Source: an uncultured Solirubrobacterales bacterium
GTDB lineage: Bacteria > Actinomycetota > Thermoleophilia > Solirubrobacterales > 70-9
Direction of reading: 5' to 3'
DNA length: 64,000 nt
Assembly: GCA_963735255.1 (NCBI GenBank)
Contig: CAVTKC010000003.1
Span: 12,995-76,994 of the forward strand
In this document: piece after piece, positions 1,158-60,188 of the stretch
Layout: the number at the start of each line of letters is the position of its first letter
How positions within the stretch are numbered: position 1 is the first letter of the stretch
Notes under the pieces: generated by a model
Told to the model about the DNA's origin: nothing
Seen by the model: only the letters and a program-made list of their open reading frames with translations
Databases searched by the model: none
Made by a program: the position numbers and the translations under genes

Positions 1158-1781
1158 TCAAAGGCGCCGGGCGAAAGTCACGGCGACCACGCGGGCGGCC
1201 CCGGCCGCCCGCAGAGCCTGCGCACAGGCACTCAGCGTCGCCCCGGTGGTGAGCACGTCGTCGATCAAGAGGACGCTGCGGGGAGCCACTCCCGTCGCCT
1301 CGATGCGCGGCGGCTGCCCAAGGCGCTCCGCTCGCCTGCGCCCGACCTGCCGCCGCGACCCGCGCCGCACCAGGCAGGGCTCGAGACAGGCATCGAGGCG
1401 CTCAGCCAGCGCCCCGGCCAGCTCCCCCGCCGGGTCGAACCCCCGGCGCCGCAAACGCGAGCGCGCCGGCGGCACCGGCACCACCACCCCACTCAGCATC
1501 TGCGCCGGCGCCAGCCACTGAATCCGGTCCGCCATCAGCTCGGCGACCGGCAGCAGCCGCCGGAACTTCAGCGCCGCGACCAGATCCCGCGCCACCCCCT
1601 CGTGCGAGGCCGAGGACCAAGCCCGATCGAGCCCCGGCGGCCCCTTCCCCAGCAACGGCTCCGCCGCCGCCAGCCGCCGCCCACAGCGGGTGCAGACAAC
1701 CGCCTCGGCCCGGCAGGCGCGCCCGCAGGCGGCGCACAGGGGCGGGGCGACGACGGCGGCGATTGCCTGCAAAACCTGCAT
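1158..1781 (-). CDS. ComF-family phosphoribosyltransferase-like protein
   Basis: N-terminal Cys4 (CAACGRAC...CTRCGRRL) plus the C-terminal PRTase motif VLLIDDVLTTGATLSACAQAL. Convergent with hpf. Confidence 0.8.
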   Translation of the reverse strand: MQVLQAIAAVVAPPLCAACGRACRAEAVVCTRCGRRLAAAEPLLGKGPPGLDRAWSSASHEGVARDLVAALKFRRLLPVAELMADRIQWLAPAQMLSGVVVPVPPARSRLRRRGFDPAGELAGALAERLDACLEPCLVRRGSRRQVGRRRAERLGQPPRIEATGVAPRSVLLIDDVLTTGATLSACAQALRAAGAARVVAVTFARRL

Positions 1782-1838: not shown

Positions 1839-1985
1839 GGAGGGACCCGGATGTCCCCCGTGTGAATTGAGTCGCGCACCCTCACGGGTGCTGCTCCGGG
1901 AGATGGTGCGCGCCTATGGCGCGCAGAAGACAGATTGCATTTCGCCGCTGCGCGACATTCTCACGGGGGACATCCGGGTCCCTCC
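1839..1985 (+). repeat. Structured repeat, core family A, copy A1 (forward orientation)
   Basis: Perfect 24-bp arms GGAGGGACCCGGATGTCCCCCGTG (1839-1862) and CACGGGGGACATCCGGGTCCCTCC (1962-1985). They enclose a 99-nt core: TGAATTGAGTCGCGCACCCTCACGGGTGCTGCTCC...GTGCGCGCCTATGGCGCGCAG...GATTGCATTTCGCCGCTGCGCGACATTC. Confidence 0.85.
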
Positions 1986-2153
1986 ACCAACACTCGACAC
2001 CGGGACTTCACGGGTCGGTCGCCATTGAAGCTTCGGAGCTCCCAGCAAGCGACGCGCGGGGAGCTGATTCGCTCGAGGACGCCGCTGGGTTCGAGCGACT
2101 CCCGAGCCCCCGGTCGCGCTCGAGCAGCTTCAAAATCTGAGCGGCGTTCCGTT

Positions 2154-2303
2154 GGGAGGGTGATGGCGCTCCCCCGCAGGAATGTCGCGAAGCGGCGGAA
2201 ATGCAATCCGATTCCTGCCCGCCATAGGCGGGCAGCATCCCCCGGAGCAGCACCCGAAGGGTGCGCGACTCAATTCCAGCGGGGGAGTGTCACCACCCCT
2301 CCC
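2154..2303 (-). repeat. Structured repeat, core family A, copy A2 (reverse orientation; convergent with A1)
   Basis: The reverse complement reads GGAATTGAGTCGCGCACCCTTCGGGTGCTGCTCC..CTGCCCGCCTATGGCGGGCAG..GGATTGCATTTCCGCCGCTTCGCGACATTCC. Arms 2154-2177 and 2279-2303 are imperfect (1 bulge, 3 non-Watson-Crick positions). It lies 18 nt downstream of the frameshift-corrected stop of the ManC-like gene, in sense orientation. Confidence 0.85.
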
Positions 2304-2320: not shown

Positions 2321-3324
2321 TCAGCCACGGAGACCGGCGATAGCACCGATCAACACCGAGCCCCCGGGGATCTGAGCCCCTGGCAAGGCAATCGTCTCCC
2401 GCAGCCTGCTGCCTGCCCCGATGCTGACCCCCGGCCCGATCACCGACGGCCCGTCGATCCGCACGTCGTCGCCGATCTCAGCCCCGTCCGCGATCAGTAC
2501 CGGCCCGGCCAGCGCACCCTCGTCGCCGGCGGGGGAGCCGCTGCGGTAGCCGTCGAGGAGCTCCCCTCGCGCTCGACCTCGACCGCCCCGCTGAGCGCGT
2601 CGAGGGTGCTCTCGCGCAGCTCCGTGAGGTTGCCGATGTCGTTCCAGTAGGCGTCGATCTCGTGCGAGTAGAAGGGCACGTCGCCGTCGAGCAGGCGCGG
2701 GAAGACGTCCATCGCCCAGTCGGCGAAGCCGGCGGGATCGCCGGGGCCGGCAGCTTTGCTGGTGCCGGGCGCGGGGAAGAAGTCGAAGATCTCCGAGCGA
2801 AACATGTAGATGCCGCAGTTGGCGAGGTCGGAGAGGGCCTCGGCCGGGTCGGGCTTCTCCTGGAAGCCCTGGATGCGGCCGTCGGCGCCGGTGATCGCGA
2901 CCCCGAACTGGCTGGTGTCGTCGACCCGCTTGGTCGCCAGCGTCGCGATCCCGTCGTGGGACTCGTGGAATTCGCGCATCGCCGTCAGGTCGAGGTCGGT
3001 GAGCGCGTCGCCGGAGATGATCAGGAAGGAGTCGCCGAGGAAACCGGCCGCGTTGCGGACGCCGCCGGAGGTGCCCAGCAGCTGCTCCTCGGGGCTGTAG
3101 GAGAGCTCGACGCCGAGCTGGGAGCCGTCGCCAAAGTGGGCTTCGATCAGCTCCGGGAACCAGTGCAGGTTGGCGATCGTCTCGGTGAAGCCGTGGCGGG
3201 CGAGCAGCAGCAGGATGTGCTCCATCACCGGCCGGTTCAGGACCGGCACCATCGGCTTCGGCATGTCGTAGGTGATCGGCCGCAAGCGGGTGCCCAGGCC
3301 GGCTGCCAGAACCATCGCCCTCAT
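2321..3324 (-). pseudogene. ManC-type NDP-sugar pyrophosphorylase (mannose-1-phosphate guanylyltransferase-like), frameshifted between the nucleotidyltransferase and LbH domains
   Basis: ATG at 3324 (ATGA overlap with the upstream stop) gives MRAMVLAAGLGTRLRPITYDMPKPMVPVLNRPVMEH... In that frame it ends at 2494 in junk (SSSTATAAAPPPATRV). A different frame then continues as GELLDGYRSGSPAGDEGALAGPVLIADGAEIGDDVRIDGPSVIGPGVSIGAGSRLRETIALPGAQIPGG (left-handed beta-helix) to a TGA at 2321-2323. One extra G in the run at about 2562-2566 restores the frame. Confidence 0.75.
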
Positions 3325-9338: not shown

Positions 9339-9426
9339 CGTCGCCCTTGCCTTTCTTCGCCCACAGGGCGAATAAGGACAAACGCACTCCCCTCGCCCAC
9401 GCCCCGCGCGACGAGCGTCGCCAAGC

Positions 9427-9840
9427 TCATCCCTGAGCGATAGCGAGAAACGCCTCGGCCCGATCCCGATCTTTCTGGGCCCGCGCAAAATCGGCGCTGT
9501 CCTTCTCGTGCTCGGACAGCCGCTGCTCGGCGTCCGCCAGCTGCTCTTTCAGCTTGCCGGCATCGAGATCCTCGGGGGCGATCGCCTCCTCGACCAGGAG
9601 CCGGGCGCGGTTGCCGAACATCTGCAGCCAGCCGTGGGCCTGGGCGTAGCGCACGGTCTCGGAGTCGGAGACGTGCAGGCGCAGCTCGGTCGGCCGCAGT
9701 GCCGCCAGCAACGGCGCGTGGTTGGCGAGGATGCCGATTTCGCCGACCTCGGTGCGGGTCGAGACCTGCTGAACCTCGCCCTCGAAGACCTCCCCCTCCG
9801 GGGTCAGGACCTCGACGTCGAGTTTGTGGTCGGCAGCCAT
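9427..9840 (-). CDS. atpC: F1 ATP synthase epsilon subunit
   Basis: Last gene of the atp operon. LDVEVLTPEGEVFEGEV..ILANHAPLL is the typical epsilon N-terminal barrel. Confidence 0.93.
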   Translation of the reverse strand: MAADHKLDVEVLTPEGEVFEGEVQQVSTRTEVGEIGILANHAPLLAALRPTELRLHVSDSETVRYAQAHGWLQMFGNRARLLVEEAIAPEDLDAGKLKEQLADAEQRLSEHEKDSADFARAQKDRDRAEAFLAIAQG

Positions 9841-46828: not shown

Positions 46829-46832
46829 GGGG

Positions 46833-46895
46833 GCGCCGTGGGGGGAGGCACCTGCGAGCGAGGTCTACGTTCTCGGTACCTCCCCCCACGGCGCT
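46833..46895. terminator. Long GC-rich hairpin (20-bp stem with 1 mismatch, 23-nt loop) after the ALDH stop: an 'empty' version of the repeat stems
   Basis: GCGCCGTGGGGGGAGGCACC (46833-46852) pairs with GGTACCTCCCCCCACGGCGC (46876-46895). Starts 5 nt after the stop. No U-tract. Confidence 0.5.
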
Positions 46896-48074: not shown

Positions 48075-48230
48075 GGGAGCGGGACGGGGACCTTCTCCCC
48101 CGTTGAATTGAGTCGCGCACCCTTCGGGCGCGGCTCCGGATGTTGGTGCGCGCCTATGGCGCGCAGATATCGGATTGCATTTCCGCCGCTTCGCGACATT
48201 CACGGGGGAGGAGGTCCCCGTCCCGCTCCC
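48075..48230 (+). repeat. Structured repeat, core family A, copy A3 (forward; sense to the ACAD gene, starts 5 nt after its stop)
   Basis: Arms GGGAGCGGGACGGGGACCTTCTCCCCCGT (48075-48103) and ACGGGGGAGGAGGTCCCCGTCCCGCTCCC (48202-48230) form 29 bp with a single T:G position. Core: TGAATTGAGTCGCGCACCCTTCGGGCGCGGCTCC..GTGCGCGCCTATGGCGCGCAG..GGATTGCATTTCCGCCGCTTCGCGACATTC. Confidence 0.88.
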
Positions 48231-48366
48231 CAACGCAGAGCCCGGGAACGGCCGACCAGCCCCGCATCGAGTGTCGAGCAGTGGCTTAGCTCCAGCGCTA
48301 GCTTCCCCAAGGAGGGGCAGCAACGATTCACCACGAGTCACGGGTGCGGTTGCCCTGCGGCTGCCG

Positions 48367-48519
48367 GGGCGGAGTCGGGTGCGTGGCTGGGGGAATGTCG
48401 CCGCAGGCGGCGGAAATGCAATCCGGTATCTGCGCCGCGGCAGCGGCGCACCGACATCCGAGCTAAGCCCCGAAGGGGCGTGCTCGCCAATTCCCCCAGC
48501 CACGCACCCGACTCCGCCC
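48367..48519 (-). repeat. Structured repeat, core subfamily B, copy B1 (reverse; sense to and abutting the histidine kinase stop codon)
   Basis: Perfect 27-bp arms GGGCGGAGTCGGGTGCGTGGCTGGGGG (48367-48393) and CCCCCAGCCACGCACCCGACTCCGCCC (48493-48519). Reverse complement of the core: GAATTGGCGAGCACGCCCCTTCGGGGCTTAGCTCGG..TGCGCCGCTGCCGCGGCGCA..GGATTGCATTTCCGCCGCCTGCGGCGACATTC. Confidence 0.88.
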
Positions 48520-49371
48520 TCACGCCGACTTCAACGTGAACCGCACCCGCGTCCCCGGATGCCCGTCCTCGAGCCAGATCCGCCCCCCGTGCGCTTCGAC
48601 GATCGCCCGGGAGATCGCCAGGCCGAGGCCGGCACCGTCCTCGCCGCGCGAGTCGTCGCCGCGGTAGAAGGCCTCGAAGACCCGCTCGCCGGAGCCGGCG
48701 GGCACTCCCTCACCGTCGTCGGCGACCTCGACCTCGACGTCGCCGCCGGCCGGCCGGGCGCGGACGGTGACGCTGCCGTCGGCGGGGGTGTGGCGAATCG
48801 CGTTCTGGATCAGGTTGAAGAGGACCCGCTGCACCTTCTCGGCGTTGGCCTCTGCCAAAACGTGTCCGGCGGGCAGGTCGGCGGCGATCCGCACACCGCG
48901 CTCGGCCGCCGGCGCCCGCATCGCCGCCACGGTGTCGCCGATCAGGTCGCCGAGCTCGACCTGGCGCATCGTCCAGGAAATGTCCCCGGCCTCGATCCGC
49001 GAGAGCTCGAAGAGGTCGTCGATGAGGTCGCTGAGGACGGCGACGTGGGTGCGGATCTCCTTCAGGTAACGGTCGCGGGTCTCCCCCGTCGCGACCCCGT
49101 CATCGATCGACTCGACCAGCAGCCGCAGCGAGGCGAGCGGCGTGCGCAGGTCGTGCGAGGCCGCCGCGACCAGCTGGCGGCGCGCCTCCTCGATCTGCCG
49201 CCGCGAGCGCTCCTCCATCGCCAGCCGCACCGCCAGCGCCGTCGCCAAGGCGGCGCCGACCGCGGCCAGGACGGCGAGCAGGATCTGGTCGGCGCCCATC
49301 CGGCCGGGCACCGCGACCGCGGCAGCACCGGCGAGGAAAGACGCGACGGCGATGACGAGGGCGCGCTTCAC
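48520..49371 (-). CDS. Sensor histidine kinase, intramembrane-sensing type (two N-terminal TM helices, no extracytoplasmic domain or HAMP)
   Basis: AAASHDLRTPLASL (H-box)...LIQNAIRHTP (N-box)...DDGEGV..GAGLGLAISRAIVEAHGG (G-boxes). Confidence 0.9.
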   Translation of the reverse strand: MKRALVIAVASFLAGAAAVAVPGRMGADQILLAVLAAVGAALATALAVRLAMEERSRRQIEEARRQLVAAASHDLRTPLASLRLLVESIDDGVATGETRDRYLKEIRTHVAVLSDLIDDLFELSRIEAGDISWTMRQVELGDLIGDTVAAMRAPAAERGVRIAADLPAGHVLAEANAEKVQRVLFNLIQNAIRHTPADGSVTVRARPAGGDVEVEVADDGEGVPAGSGERVFEAFYRGDDSRGEDGAGLGLAISRAIVEAHGGRIWLEDGHPGTRVRFTLKSA

Positions 49372-50066
49372 GGCCGCAACCTGTAGCCGACACCCCAGAC
49401 CGTCTCGATGAAGCGCGGTTCGTCGGGGTCGTCGCCGAGCTTGGCGCGGAGCCGGCGGACGTGGACGGTGACGGTGCTGGTGTCGTTGAAGTACGGCTCG
49501 CCCCAGACCGATTCCATCAGCTGGTCGCGGGAGTAGACGCGGCCGGGGTGCTCGGCGAGATAGGCGAGCAGGTCGAACTCGCGCATCGTCAGCGACAGCT
49601 CCGCGCCGTCGAGCAGGACGCGGCGGCTCGCCGGCTCGATCCGCAGCGCCCCGTGGACGATCGGCGGCGCCTCGGAGTCCGGCGGCGAGACCCGGCGCAG
49701 CACGGCGTCGACGCGGGCGACCAGCTCGGCGGGCGAGAACGGCTTGACCACGTAGTCGTCGGCGCCCCGGCGCAGGCCCACCAGCCGGTCGGACTCCTCG
49801 CCACGCGCGGTCAGCAGGATCACCGCGATCCGCGGCCCCGGGCGCTCGTGCAGGCGGCGCATCACCTCGATCCCGTCGATCCCGGGCAGCATCAGGTCGA
49901 GCACCACGAGGTCGGGGTGGTGCTCGTCGGCCAGGCGCAGCGCCTCGGGACCGCTGGCGGCGCGGTGGGTCTCGTAGCCCGCCCGCTCCATGTAGCGGCC
50001 GACGACGTCGAGGATCGTCGGCTCGTCGTCGACGACCAGGACCGCGCCCTTGGAGGAGTCCGCCAT
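49368..50066 (-). CDS. OmpR/PhoB-family response regulator
   Basis: VLVVDDEPTI...DLVVLDLMLPGIDG...DDYVVKPFSP...IETVWGVGYRL. 4-nt overlap with the HK start. Confidence 0.93.
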   Translation of the reverse strand: MADSSKGAVLVVDDEPTILDVVGRYMERAGYETHRAASGPEALRLADEHHPDLVVLDLMLPGIDGIEVMRRLHERPGPRIAVILLTARGEESDRLVGLRRGADDYVVKPFSPAELVARVDAVLRRVSPPDSEAPPIVHGALRIEPASRRVLLDGAELSLTMREFDLLAYLAEHPGRVYSRDQLMESVWGEPYFNDTSTVTVHVRRLRAKLGDDPDEPRFIETVWGVGYRLRP

Positions 50067-50103
50067 CGCCGCGATTGTCGCGCTCGCGCCGACGGACTCG
50101 CGG

Positions 50104-51861
50104 CTAGCCGAAGGTGAAGGCATATCCCTCCACCCCGCTTTCCGGCTTCAGGGTGAGGACGTGCCGGCCAACGGCGGGGAGGTCGACGAGGTTGTAGAGG
50201 CGGTGCGCGGAGACCGTGACGGTGCCGTCCTCGACATCCGCGCCGGCGTCGGCGGCGGCGATCGGCTTGCCGTCCAGCAGCACCTTGACCCGGCGCTCGC
50301 GCCCGGGCGAGCCCAGCACCAGATAGACACGGCGGGCACCGAAGTCGAGGTCGAGCGAGGCGCCGCCGGCCGCGGTCGCCGAGTCGAGCGCGATCCGCCA
50401 GTTGCCGCGGAAGGCGAATTCGCTTTCCCCCAGTCCATCCGGGGCACTGAAGTCGTGGGTTCCCGGCGACAGTTCGGGGTTGGTGAAGCGTTCGGCCCGG
50501 GCGGCGCCGAGGTAGGTCTCCGGCGTGGTCACCGTCGCCGAGGGAGCGACCGCGTGCACGCTCGTCTCCTTCGCCCCGACCTTGTCGCCGGCTTCGGCCA
50601 ACAGCTCGCGGATCACCTTCTCTTTCTCCCCGTATTCGCCCTCGCCGAAGTGGGCGTAGCGGACGCGGCCGCGGGCATCGATGAAGTACTCGGCCGGCCA
50701 GTACTGGTTGCCGTAGGCGTTCCAGGTCGCCTGTTCGTTGTCCTGGGCGACCGGATAGCGGATCTCGTTTTCGCGGATCGCCGCTTCGACGTTGCCGGCT
50801 TCGCGCTCGAAGGGGAACTCCGGCGTGTGGACGCCGACGATCGTCAGCCCGTCTTTGCGGTAGCGCGCGTCCCAGGCCTTCAGGTAGGGAAAGGTGCGGA
50901 TGCAGTTGATGCAGCTGTAGGTCCAGAAGTCGACGAGGACGACGCGGCCGCGCAACGAGGCGAGGCTGAGCGGGCGATCGCCGGGGGTGTTGAACCAGCG
51001 CTCGTTGCCGACGAATTCGGGCGCCTCGCCCAGCACCGGCAGGCCGGAGTTCGGACCGGCGCCGGGGTCCTGAGGGGAGATGCTCGCCGCCCGGGCACCG
51101 ATGCCGTGGGCCGAGCCGCCGCGGATGTCGGCCAGCGCCGTCTGCGCGGCGGCGGTGTCCTCGAGCCCTTCGCTGGGATTGACGAGGAAGCCCGGCAGGT
51201 CGCTGGCGATCCGGTTCTGGAAGCGGATGTCGTAGTTGCCCAGCATCGCCAGGGCGACGACGACCATCACCGCGCCCATCGCGACCTGCAGGCCGACGCC
51301 GCGCCGGGCCAGCGGCCGGACCACGCGGCGGCCGCCGAGCATGAGGAAGTAGAGGACGACCGCGGAGCCAATCCCGTAGCTGAGGGCGACGGCGAGGCGA
51401 CCGGTGCTGAACGACTGCGAAGCCGAGACGGTGATGACCCCGGCCAGGATCGGGCCGGCGCAGGGCGCGTAGACGAGCCCGAGGCTGGCCCCCACGGCGG
51501 TCCCCGACCAGAAACCGTCGCCCTTGCCCTGCGCCACCCCCGCCCGGCTCGCGAACTGACTCATCCAGGCCTCCAGCCGGGCGGCGAGCGGCGGGATCAT
51601 CAACGTGATCCCGAAGCCGAGCAGGACGACGATCGCCAGCTTGCGGAGGAAGTCGTTGGGCAGCCCGAGGGCGGAGATCACGTAGACCAGCGCGACCGTG
51701 GCGAAGGTGAACGACACGGCCAGGCCGGCGACGATCCCGAGCGGCCGCCGGCGGCCGCCGGTCGCGCCCGCTGAGAGCGCGATCGGCAGCACCGGCAGCA
51801 CGCAGGGCGACAGCGCCGTGGCGGCGCCGGCGACAAAGCCGAAGAGGATCAGCAGGGCCAT
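50104..51861 (-). CDS. DipZ-like fusion: CcdA/DsbD-type thiol:disulfide transmembrane transporter, thioredoxin-like (TlpA/redoxin) domain, and a C-terminal beta-rich domain
   Basis: TALSPCVLPVLP and VYAPCAGPIL (the two CcdA Cys motifs). VLVDFWTYSCINCIRTFP (CxxC Trx). C-terminal NWRIALDS...VYLVLG. Same architecture as Mtb DipZ as I recall it. Confidence 0.85.
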   Translation of the reverse strand: MALLILFGFVAGAATALSPCVLPVLPIALSAGATGGRRRPLGIVAGLAVSFTFATVALVYVISALGLPNDFLRKLAIVVLLGFGITLMIPPLAARLEAWMSQFASRAGVAQGKGDGFWSGTAVGASLGLVYAPCAGPILAGVITVSASQSFSTGRLAVALSYGIGSAVVLYFLMLGGRRVVRPLARRGVGLQVAMGAVMVVVALAMLGNYDIRFQNRIASDLPGFLVNPSEGLEDTAAAQTALADIRGGSAHGIGARAASISPQDPGAGPNSGLPVLGEAPEFVGNERWFNTPGDRPLSLASLRGRVVLVDFWTYSCINCIRTFPYLKAWDARYRKDGLTIVGVHTPEFPFEREAGNVEAAIRENEIRYPVAQDNEQATWNAYGNQYWPAEYFIDARGRVRYAHFGEGEYGEKEKVIRELLAEAGDKVGAKETSVHAVAPSATVTTPETYLGAARAERFTNPELSPGTHDFSAPDGLGESEFAFRGNWRIALDSATAAGGASLDLDFGARRVYLVLGSPGRERRVKVLLDGKPIAAADAGADVEDGTVTVSAHRLYNLVDLPAVGRHVLTLKPESGVEGYAFTFG

Positions 51862-54156: not shown

Positions 54157-54185
54157 GGACCGGCGCCCCGGGTACAGGGTCGGCC

Positions 54186-54623
54186 ATGCCCGACTCCGAA
54201 GAGAAGCTCGACGAGAAAGAGGCGGTGAAGCGGCTCAACGCCGCCCTCGCCCTGCAATACCGCTCTGCCCTCCAGTACTCGCTCGCCGCGGCCAGCCTGC
54301 GCGGGATCGAGGCGCAGGCGCTGAGCGAGAAGCTGACCGGGTTCGGCGACGAGGAGCTGAGCGACGCCCGCCGACTGATCGAAAAGATCGTCTCCTTCGA
54401 GGGCGAGCCGACGACCGAGGTCGCCGCGCTGCGCTTCGACACGGTCGCCGAGGACGCCATCCGCTGGCTGGTCGAATGCGAGGAAGAAGCCGTCGACACG
54501 CTGCAAGAGGCAATCGAGCCGACCGGCCGCGAGGGACGCTCGGAGGCACTCGAGCACCTAATGGAGCATCTGATCTTGCGCAAGCAGCATCAGGTGGACT
54601 TCCTCAGCCGCGCGATCGCTTAG
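54186..54623 (+). CDS. Ferritin-like superfamily protein (bacterioferritin-like four-helix bundle, 145 aa)
   Basis: AVKRLNAALALQYRSALQY...EELSDARRLIEKIVSFEGEP...ECEEEAV...EALEHLMEHLILRKQH. The helix pattern resembles Bfr, with only some di-iron ligands recognisable. Confidence 0.6.
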   Translation: MPDSEEKLDEKEAVKRLNAALALQYRSALQYSLAAASLRGIEAQALSEKLTGFGDEELSDARRLIEKIVSFEGEPTTEVAALRFDTVAEDAIRWLVECEEEAVDTLQEAIEPTGREGRSEALEHLMEHLILRKQHQVDFLSRAIA

Positions 54624-54662
54624 CCGCTGGGGGCCACTGGCCAGAGGGGCGGACCGATCGAG

Positions 54663-54698
54663 TTGCGCCTTTGGGTTCTGGCGCAACCCAAAGGCGCA
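54663..54698 (+). terminator. Hairpin after the ferritin-like gene, with two mutually exclusive pairings
   Basis: TGCGCCTTTGGGTT (54664-54677) pairs with AACCCAAAGGCGCA (54685-54698), 14 bp. Alternatively GTTGCGCC (54663-54670) pairs with GGCGCAAC (54680-54687). No U-tract. Confidence 0.4.
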
Positions 54699-54786
54699 GT
54701 TCACCTGAGCGCGACCGGCGAATGATCAACCTGGCGCACCCTCATAGAGACGATCCGTGCCCTCGGGTCCAGCGGAGGCGGCCAAT

Positions 54787-54932
54787 GAGGGGTCCGGTCG
54801 TCCTCCATTCGAATGTCGCGCAGCGGCGATATGCAATCTGTCTCCTGCGCCGCGGCAGCGGCGCACCAACACCCGAGCTAAGCGGCGCAGCCGCGTGCTC
54901 GCCAATTCGAATGGAGGACGACCGGACCCCTC
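54787..54932 (-). repeat. Structured repeat, core subfamily B, copy B2 (solo, reverse orientation)
   Basis: Perfect 24-bp arms GAGGGGTCCGGTCGTCCTCCATTC (54787-54810) and GAATGGAGGACGACCGGACCCCTC (54909-54932). Reverse complement of the core: GAATTGGCGAGCACGCGGCTGCGCCGCTTAGCTCGG..TGCGCCGCTGCCGCGGCGCA..AGATTGCATATCGCCGCTGCGCGACATTC. Confidence 0.88.
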
Positions 54933-55113
54933 CCCCACCAGCCTCAACTCAAGCAACCCCACCGAGGCGCATCGCTGCAATTCCTCTTGCGCGCCCTCTC
55001 GTCACCGAGAGTTTTTGTCTGTAGACGCATAGATTCCGCCCCACGTGCTTCGGCGGGTGGCCCGCGACGGAGCTTTTCCTGTCTCGAATCAGTCGAATTC
55101 GGCTCGGAGGAGC

Positions 55114-59792: not shown

Positions 59793-59920
59793 TGAGGGAG
59801 GGTGCGGGTGTCCCTCTCCCTTGCTGGGATTTTCGCCAGAACAACTGAGTCCGTCCGAGGTGGAGCTCTCGGGCGAAAATCAGGACGCCGCGCGTCCGAG
59901 GGACACCCGCACCCTCCTCA
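59793..59920 (+). repeat. Structured repeat, core family C, copy C1 (forward)
   Basis: Arms AGGGTGCGGGTGTCCCTC (59799-59816) and GAGGGACACCCGCACCCT (59898-59915) are perfect; TGAGG(G) and CCTCA extend them with 1 bulge. The core contains the inner 10-bp stem GATTTTCGCC...GGCGAAAATC. Confidence 0.85.
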
Positions 59921-60033
59921 CGCTTCGAGATCGCTCCAGCTCACGAGGAGCCGGAGGATCGGCGCTCTCAGCTCAAAGGAGCCGCGGCTTGGGCGCTCTT
60001 AGCTGAACTGCCGTACTTCGCGACGCTTGCGTT

Positions 60034-60158
60034 GGGAGGGGTCGGGCACCTCTCGTACGAGCGGCGTCCGATTTTCGCCCGAGAGGCCTCCCTCGGACGG
60101 CCGTTAATAGTTCCTGGCGAAAATCCCAGCGAAGGTAGAGAGGTGCCCGACCCCTCCC
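60034..60158 (-). repeat. Structured repeat, core family C, copy C2 (reverse; convergent with C1)
   Basis: Perfect 21-bp arms GGGAGGGGTCGGGCACCTCTC (60034-60054) and GAGAGGTGCCCGACCCCTCCC (60138-60158). The reverse complement of the core aligns along its full length with C1 (GCTGGGATTTTCGCCAG..CCGTCCGAGG..CTCTCGGGCGAAAATC.GGACGCCGC). Confidence 0.85.
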
Positions 60159-60188
60159 CCACCCAGCCTTCGAAGTACGTCGTCCTGA

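Follow-up and report, generated by a model that had tools for sequence, protein, structure and literature searches.

A hairpin-bounded, probably mobile non-coding doublet in Solirubrobacterales-type actinobacteria

The REP (repetitive extragenic palindromic), BIME (bacterial interspersed mosaic element) and REPIN repeats of enterobacteria and Pseudomonas are non-coding palindromes that lie behind genes and form inverted pairs around a short spacer. The same holds for a 465-nt doublet at positions 1839-2303 of the window analysed here, a 64,000-nt stretch of contig CAVTKC010000003.1 (assembly GCA_963735255.1) from an uncultured Solirubrobacterales bacterium. Two inverted hairpin modules, A1 and A2, form its ends. 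Since sharp-edged whole copies occur at unrelated sites and an orthologous site (locus L023) is empty, the doublet is probably a dispersed and mobile non-coding unit. On balance, we take it to be a hairpin-bounded unit like a REPIN or MITE (miniature inverted-repeat transposable element), with stems that double as transcript-end stem-loops.

The best-supported comparison in kind is with REPINs/BIMEs and with hairpin-forming MITE-like repeats such as Correia and ERIC. As in REPINs, it is the doublet and not the single repeat that is copied, and the stems can be likened to REP hairpins, which are thought to protect upstream mRNA. However, REPs are about 35 nt long and conserved in sequence, whereas the present ends are self-contained 150-nt hairpins, in which the four-way core is conserved and the stem is private to the copy. 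The repeats of a REPIN pair together and their RAYT enzyme is known, while the partner stems of the present unit are unrelated and only A1 and A2 were found to join in a super-hairpin; no RAYT gene came to light, no search aimed at one having been made. Correia/NEMIS, ERIC, RUP and SMAG elements are intergenic, 100-160 bp in size, form long hairpins when co-transcribed, occupy 3' or inter-cistronic positions and affect RNA processing or stability. In all these groups the terminal inverted repeats keep their sequence within a genome, and a target duplication is usual; the present unit has hypervariable terminal stems, a conserved centre and paired hairpins, and no duplication was seen at the few junctions examined. 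Like a MITE, it is small, non-coding and multi-copy, with sharp edges against unrelated flanks (loci L001/L030 and L027/L070/L110), but its terminal inverted repeats are not conserved in sequence within the genome.

The inverted terminal repeats (ITRs) of parvoviruses and adeno-associated virus (AAV) and the telomere palindromes of Streptomyces are inverted end modules of about 150 nt, in which a long stem surrounds small inner hairpins (a T or Y fold). In AAV-type ITRs and Streptomyces telomeres the folding strand has its 3' end at the terminus, and the present unit may resemble them in these features. Both are ends of linear replicons with known Rep or terminal-protein machinery, whereas the present unit is chromosome-internal, shows no flip/flop of core orientation and has no associated protein. 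Integron attC sites are also hairpins, used in recombination, at the 3' ends of genes that keep structure while sequence varies and that prefer one strand. In attC sites the R/L boxes at the outer ends are conserved, the centre varies and some bases are extrahelical, and the present unit is the reverse, with a variable outer stem and a conserved centre; no integrase was seen next to copies, and no cassette array. Compensatory covariation is shared with structured RNAs in general, but the G:U intermediates that are common on their functional strand are rare here. Among actinobacteria, the terminator-like repeat TRIT is restricted to Mycobacterium and lies at gene termini (PMC3152330). TRIT and the present unit are both lineage-restricted multi-copy hairpins tight to stop codons, without a classical U-tail and, being palindromic, two-way. 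The TRIT hairpin is short, its stem sequence is conserved, and it lacks the multi-helix core, the obligate doublet and the AGCT-rich spacer of the present unit.

The doublet as the copied unit

An exact scan for the core pattern in one genome per species matched at least 117 loci, and the family counts given below rest on these loci together with the window. Iterated nhmmer over this set found at least 184 copies. The matched loci came nearly all from metagenome-assembled genomes (MAGs) labelled Solirubrobacterales, Conexibacteraceae, Thermoleophilia or unclassified Actinomycetota. OY970074.1 and CAWFIM01, close relatives of the window genome, have 87-93% amino-acid identity in flanking genes. 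Complete chromosomes carrying the family include OY970074.1, OY969915.1, OY969802.1 and OY969794.1. Rfam had no match at gathering thresholds in the whole window, and at a relaxed E-value region 1700-2450 returned only chance-level matches far under threshold. Nothing relevant was found in the literature on Solirubrobacterales repeats. A phage origin was rejected, since no viral contig matched the family. The repeat family is undescribed and, as far as sampled, limited to Solirubrobacterales-type actinobacteria.

A1 (1839-1985, plus strand, 149 bits with the covariance model) has a 24-bp outer stem without mismatch, GGAGGGACCCGGATGTCCCCCGTG (1839-1862) pairing with 1962-1985, around a core at 1864-1960 (GAATTG...GACATTC). 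A2 (2154-2303, minus strand, 129 bits) is inverted, with its core at 2180-2276, and the two cores are 85% identical. The 168-nt spacer (1986-2153) contains four AGCT cores, among them TTGAAGCTTCGGAGCTCC and GAGCAGCTTCAA, and a small hairpin of TCGCTCGA (2068-2075) and TCGAGCGA (2090-2097). An earlier, sequence-only reading of this DNA had described A1 and A2 as convergent copies of one core family, with a perfect 24-bp stem in A1 and a 168-nt spacer containing short hairpins; each of these statements agrees with the sequence. It had also asked whether the doublet recurs and whether the whole of it, spacer included, is the repeated unit elsewhere. Both proved to be so, the latter in at least two MAGs.

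Among the loci listed, 61 of the 62 pairs of adjacent copies were convergent, with tails facing, one was tandem and none was divergent. The core-to-core distance was mostly 150-250 nt, and the spacers were about 100-220 nt long and AGCT-rich. Doublets were located between convergent (31), tandem (21) and divergent (1) genes. Since 21 of these 53 lie between tandem genes, and single copies between tandem genes occur in both orientations (14 sense, 11 antisense), the tail-to-tail rule is not a by-product of gene orientation. Partner cores were 76% alike, compared with 63% for random pairs, while partner outer stems were no more alike than random pairs. A recent inverted duplication was rejected as the origin of the doublet because of these unrelated stems.

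Whole units have been copied to unrelated sites within genomes. Loci L001 and L030, on two contigs of one MAG with unrelated flanks, were about 96% identical over about 530 nt, including a 215-nt spacer; the identity spanned from outer stem end to outer stem end, and similarity collapsed at both edges. In another MAG, the spacers of three loci (L080, L107, L115) were 86-89% identical. Three apparently single copies on one chromosome (L027, L070, L110) had the same module and AGCT-rich tail followed by a different terminal hairpin (GGCGCCCCTCCCCAAAAC...GUUUUGGGGAGGGGCGCC); because this hairpin is shared beyond the tail, they represent heterotypic doublets. Among 31 single copies, a stem of at least 15 bp was present on the tail side in eight and on the head side in none. 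The long spacers (215-223 nt) of L001/L030 and L080/L107 also contained a third, central perfect hairpin of 17-20 bp, e.g. TTCCGGTGCGCTTTATG...CATAAAGCGCACCGGAA.

Orthologous sites were variously occupied by a single copy or a doublet, or were empty. In L023, about 75 nt separate comF and the ManC-like gene, where the window holds the 465-nt doublet, and the additional DNA of the window spans exactly from GGAGGG (1839) to CCCTCCC (2303). Conversely, the window is empty at 9340-9427, where one copy is present in each of L091, L067, L079 and L106. The junction was read in L091, L079 and L067, and in all three the copy begins exactly 2 nt past the stop codon. Four further loci (L011, L024, L040, L007) appear to hold a doublet at this site, judging by nhmmer calls and gap sizes. 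The empty site is G-rich (GGGGCGTGGGCGAGGGGAG), with a small hairpin, and is possibly a remnant. One doublet site was common to eight species (L048, L022, L098, L056, L041, L089, L084, L058).

The sequence-only reading had asked whether A1, spacer and A2 fold as one super-hairpin. A super-hairpin was predicted for the A doublet on both strands (-310 and -317 kcal/mol) and was not predicted for the other family doublet of the window (B1-B2, described below), which folds as two local hairpins. The super-hairpin was therefore rejected as a family trait; it appears only where both copies happen to be alike.

Module structure, covariation and strand asymmetry

The module layout and the covariation were taken from an alignment of 133 copies. 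Each module folds by itself into a hairpin of about 150 nt, where a variable outer stem, P1, surrounds a conserved four-way junction (P2/P3, P4 and P5). P1 comprises 23-27 bp, is near-perfect and differs in sequence from copy to copy; in an ungapped arm-to-arm comparison, Watson-Crick pairs made up 95-99% per position, and most positions showed three or four pair types. Its outer end is biased to GGGAGG.../...CCUCCC, and the outer stems of all five family copies of the window differ, sharing only this short bias (GGGAGG.../...CCTCCC in DNA). An invariant GAAU/AUUC closes P1 and is followed by the junction strand UGA. The conserved core strands are GAAUUGA, GAUUGCAU(U/A)U and ACAUUC. The stacked P2/P3 hairpin is swapped wholesale by subtype (GUCGC..GCGAC, CACCCC..GGGGUG or GCACC..GGUGC). 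P4 (1906-1924 in A1, 2216-2234 in A2 in plus-strand coordinates) is the second hairpin of the sequence-only reading; the strand GAUUGCAU(U/A)U follows it unpaired, and then the mini-hairpin P5.

Both sides were changed in 39 of the 45 consensus pairs. Paired cells made up 95.7% of the total, as compared with 73.0% after column shuffling and 37-49% with slid partners, and the covariation score was 0.554 versus 0.138 for shuffles and at most 0.098 for slid controls. Substitutions in the two hairpin halves are therefore correlated, as the sequence-only reading had expected. The compensatory change that it had noticed in P4 is genuine as well: this hairpin reads TGCGCGCC-TAT-GGCGCGCA in A1 and TGCCCGCC-TAT-GGCGGGCA in A2, and pair G1909:C1921 of A1 is replaced by C:G in A2. 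Across the 133 copies this pair was G:C in 110, C:G in 18 and unpaired in 1, and the adjacent pair was G:C in 90 and C:G in 42. The stem sequence thus changes at close to the neutral rate without loss of base pairing. Between A1 and its ortholog in L092, for example, the core is about 90% identical and the neighbouring intergenic DNA about 75%, and the stem differs at about 8 of 25 positions, nearly all of them compensated, with one mismatch left in L092.

The pairs are almost purely Watson-Crick. In the drawn orientation (GAATTG...GACATTC), G:U accounted for 38 of 3,843 outer-stem cells and 6 of 2,114 core cells. Isolated interior mismatches in 65 non-redundant stems were A:C or C:A in 24 cases and G:T or T:G in 3 (p ~5e-5). 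This excess of A:C over G:T indicates that wobble is tolerated on the strand complementary to the drawn one, which at each end of the doublet is the strand read outward from the spacer. The ratio was 20:1 past a stop codon, 21:1 at a distance from genes and 4:0 where the copy faces the start of a gene. Transcription-linked mutation bias was rejected as its source, since the asymmetry was unchanged by the orientation of neighbouring genes. As the arms of a perfect stem read the same on either strand, P1 would fold alike in transcripts of either direction, and only the core differs between strands.

These data affect two earlier proposals. The outer stem of A2 does have the one bulge (a G) and three non-Watson-Crick positions reported for it, but its mismatch types (A:C twice, G:T once) are near those typical of the family, and A2 is no clean control for an unmaintained stem. 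An RNA motif on the drawn "sense" strand, as the sequence-only reading implied, is doubtful given that G:U makes up about 1% or less and that A:C outnumbers G:T by 24 to 3. The reading needs to widen: beyond an RNA motif that shows compensatory substitution, A1 and A2 are better seen as both ends of a hairpin-bounded, probably mobile unit, which had not been considered.

Placement, neighbouring genes and other copies in the window

A same-strand stop codon precedes 92 of 129 copies (71%), with a median gap of 14 nt; 71 copies lie within 60 nt, and some overlap the stop codon by 1-3 nt. The unit sits almost only at places where it breaks no promoter, that is, behind stop codons and mostly between convergent genes. 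A G+C-rich hairpin soon past a stop codon is what an intrinsic terminator presents. However, a U-tract 3' of the stem was not found: at tail positions 4-10 no base is rarer than T, and the tail is A/C-rich over its first 10-15 nt. A canonical intrinsic terminator was rejected because of the missing T-tract and because a terminator scan gave only one unrelated small site.

The spacers are marked by two palindromes. AGCT occurred 21.9 times per kb in spacers as opposed to 4-5 per kb in coding or other intergenic DNA, and AAGCTT 5.3 versus 0-0.07 per kb. Typical spacers hold no open reading frames (ORFs). A conserved sequence or structured RNA in the spacer was rejected, since spacers align only among orthologs or paralogs and their median fold z-score was -0.43. 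The RNase E of mycobacteria cleaves 5' of a C that follows a purine (PMC10641625), and AGCUU as an RNase E site was kept only as a weak idea, because this cleavage rule is too loose to account for a roughly 100-fold enrichment of AAGCTT.

The comF-like gene (1158-1781, minus strand) encodes a phosphoribosyltransferase domain. A1 lies upstream of it on the opposite strand, 58 nt from its start codon (1781) to the A1 outer end, confirming the upstream, antisense position reported earlier. On the other side, A2 was said to lie just downstream of the frameshift-corrected stop of a ManC-like nucleotidyltransferase gene (2321-3324, minus strand; NTP_transferase and hexapeptide domains), and indeed 17 nt separate this stop (2321-2323) from the A2 outer end. 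A frame change near 2560-2600 is needed to link the NTP_transferase part of this gene with the hexapeptide-repeat C-terminus, and it reflects either a true pseudogene or an assembly error. The hpf gene (plus strand, ending at 1147; region 788-1781) converges with the comF-like gene, which ends at 1158. The 10 nt between the two stop codons leave no space for a terminator; an hpf transcript would run antisense through the comF-like gene, and the first hairpin met would be A1.

Five family copies were found in the window with BLAST, nhmmer and the covariance model (125-149 bits, E 1e-26 to 5e-32), scores that lie well outside what chance would give. B1 (48077-48228, plus strand) begins about 8 nt past the stop codon of an acyl-CoA dehydrogenase gene, and B2 (48366-48520, minus strand), of a different core subtype, abuts the stop codon of a histidine-kinase gene; together they form the second doublet of this family in the window. 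Compared with the orthologous locus L017, the outer stem at the B site is recognisably related and several core hairpins differ, plausibly owing to conversion by paralogs. The histidine-kinase gene and its neighbour, presumably a response regulator, directly follow the B doublet (48520-50123). L017 lacks both these genes, and its doublet directly precedes a homolog of window region 50104-51861.

The fifth copy, C (54784-54935, minus strand), has no partner of the same family. A plain perfect 14-bp hairpin at 54661-54701, about 83 nt off on the tail side, is likely its heterotypic partner; this hairpin lies about 30 nt past a small ORF whose translation, judged by eye, is ferritin/Dps-like. Relative to L017, window region 54157-55045 contains an indel of about 760 nt that holds the ferritin/Dps-like ORF (54186-54633), the plain hairpin and copy C. 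Since the indel also carries a gene, this filled/empty comparison is uninformative. Another plain long perfect hairpin, of 22 bp, is located in the intergenic region 46832-46895.

A second core family is represented by a convergent doublet at 59795-59919 (plus strand) and 60032-60160 (minus strand) with the same style of outer stem. Its private long outer stems begin with GGGAGGG/GGGGAGG, the conserved core is ..GCTGGGATTTTCGCCAG..CTCGGGCGAAAATC.., and the spacer of about 113 nt contains AGCT. Weak relatives of this family were found at L082, L020, L113 and L053.

At four loci (L058 651-1227, L085 6181-7666, L033 6060-6700, L045 1767-2497), a small gene, often of lower G+C content, lies between inward-facing modules. 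The enclosed genes, named by eye, are a 73-aa membrane protein, an O-methyltransferase-like, a GNAT-like and a 235-aa membrane protein gene, whereas at orthologs of these loci there is just a short spacer, or one copy. Genes may insert preferentially into the spacer region. Long "spacers" as carriers of a transposase or cargo were rejected because the genes inside look ordinary; for this reason, long-spaced copies are taken as two separate units around a gene.

Competing explanations and implications

The same modules could be read as a cis-acting structured RNA on the GAATTG...GACATTC strand, that is, a 3' untranslated region (UTR) element, a protein-binding platform or a small ribozyme, with the genomic spread being incidental. 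All helices covary strongly, the junction nucleotides are conserved, 71% of copies lie past a stop codon on their own strand (median gap 14 nt), and copies are retained at orthologous sites in up to eight species, as such an RNA would predict. We consider it unlikely, however, because G:U pairs in this orientation amount to about 1% at most, the complementary strand is favoured by isolated mismatches (24 to 3), and single copies in tandem contexts show no orientation preference (14 sense, 11 antisense). Strict tail-to-tail doublets in tandem contexts and the copying of whole doublets would also remain unexplained. The flanking genes are functionally unrelated, which makes a pathway-specific regulator unlikely.

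The mismatch asymmetry points to the complementary strand, on which the modules might be small RNA genes read outward from the spacer; the doublet would then be a divergent pair with AAGCTT operators, and the outer stem a shared two-way terminator. Whatever the gene context, the wobble-tolerant strand reads outward at either end, modules are arranged only tail to tail, and the spacer has a lower G+C content (63%) and a strongly enriched palindromic motif. Such genes are nonetheless quite improbable: no sigma-70-like promoter was found in 1700-2450, a TANNNT -10 signal showed no peak at any distance in either orientation (17 hexamers in 136 x 120 nt), and the AGCT motifs of the spacer are dispersed, at no fixed distance from the stem. 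Even in the complement orientation G:U reaches only about 2%, and it would be unusual for a genome to have many small RNA genes that are nearly identical except for their private stems. If both DNA strands had to fold, pure Watson-Crick pairing would be expected, and two inverted repeats of about 100 nt around a spacer of about 125 nt could form a non-mobile DNA site, either an invertible switch, in which the inverted cores recombine and flip the spacer, or a cruciform signal for replication or segregation. The strand asymmetry of mismatches speaks against a symmetric cruciform. In addition, partner cores are only about 76% identical, some partners belong to a different subtype or family, many units are single, no recombinase gene lies nearby, and no oriented promoter was detected in the spacer, so that a site of this kind appears highly improbable.

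According to the reading that we favour, a mobile hairpin-bounded unit, an enzyme supplied in trans would recognise the conserved core and the hairpin shape and would move or copy the unit. Pairing would be kept partly by the requirement of this enzyme, or by template switching or conversion from arm to arm. The 29-bp G+C-rich stems, folding identically in RNA of either strand, would act as long 3'-end stem-loops without a U-tract and would end or protect the transcripts of genes on both sides. Such a role would explain the long retention at orthologous sites with pairing kept. Actinobacterial 3'-end stem-loops are reported to be long and often to have no U-rich tails (PMC13613805). A transcript-ending or insulating function is suggested by location and shape, which match these reported 3' ends (PMC13613805) and recall TRIT (PMC3152330).

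Several observations weigh against this reading. A target-site duplication was not seen at the A junctions compared with L023 or at the L001/L030 junctions, the few that were examined. No transposase or other mobilising enzyme was recognised among the genes between widely spaced copies, which, named by eye from their translations, were ordinary (GNAT-like, O-methyltransferase-like, membrane proteins). Within one genome, outer-stem sequences are not conserved in the way that classical terminal inverted repeats recognised by transposases are, and the outer stems of partners are unrelated, so the two ends do not pair as in a REPIN. Perfect stems persist at old orthologous sites, whereas a purely selfish element that is now immobile would be expected to lose them. 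The approximately 100-fold enrichment of AAGCTT in spacers is left unexplained by the mobile-hairpin model. The 3'-end role is one that we infer from position and shape, and the mismatch pattern says that the strand constrained in folding would be the complement of the one following the upstream gene, which a simple proximal 3'-UTR hairpin does not predict.

Tentatively, the family could represent a new class of bacterial non-autonomous mobile elements with ITR-like branched ends recognised by shape and a conserved junction rather than by terminal sequence. Their movement would depend on the hairpin, e.g. through an enzyme, HUH-type or otherwise structure-specific, that acts at each terminus on the strand whose 3' end lies there, and the same mechanism would enforce the perfect complementarity of the arms. 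Hairpin-dependent movement would explain why stems are private yet perfect and why mismatches differ between strands.

The family shapes many intergenic regions in a widespread uncultured soil order, where current tools would mis-annotate or ignore it. "Textbook" compensatory changes in a DNA repeat nearly without wobble mean that covariation alone is no proof of a functional RNA on the chosen strand. If the mobility is hairpin-based, the family would offer a new way to recognise the ends of elements. If the hairpins define transcript ends, they would offer a way to study how transcripts are ended and insulated in high-G+C actinobacteria that have no U-tract terminators.

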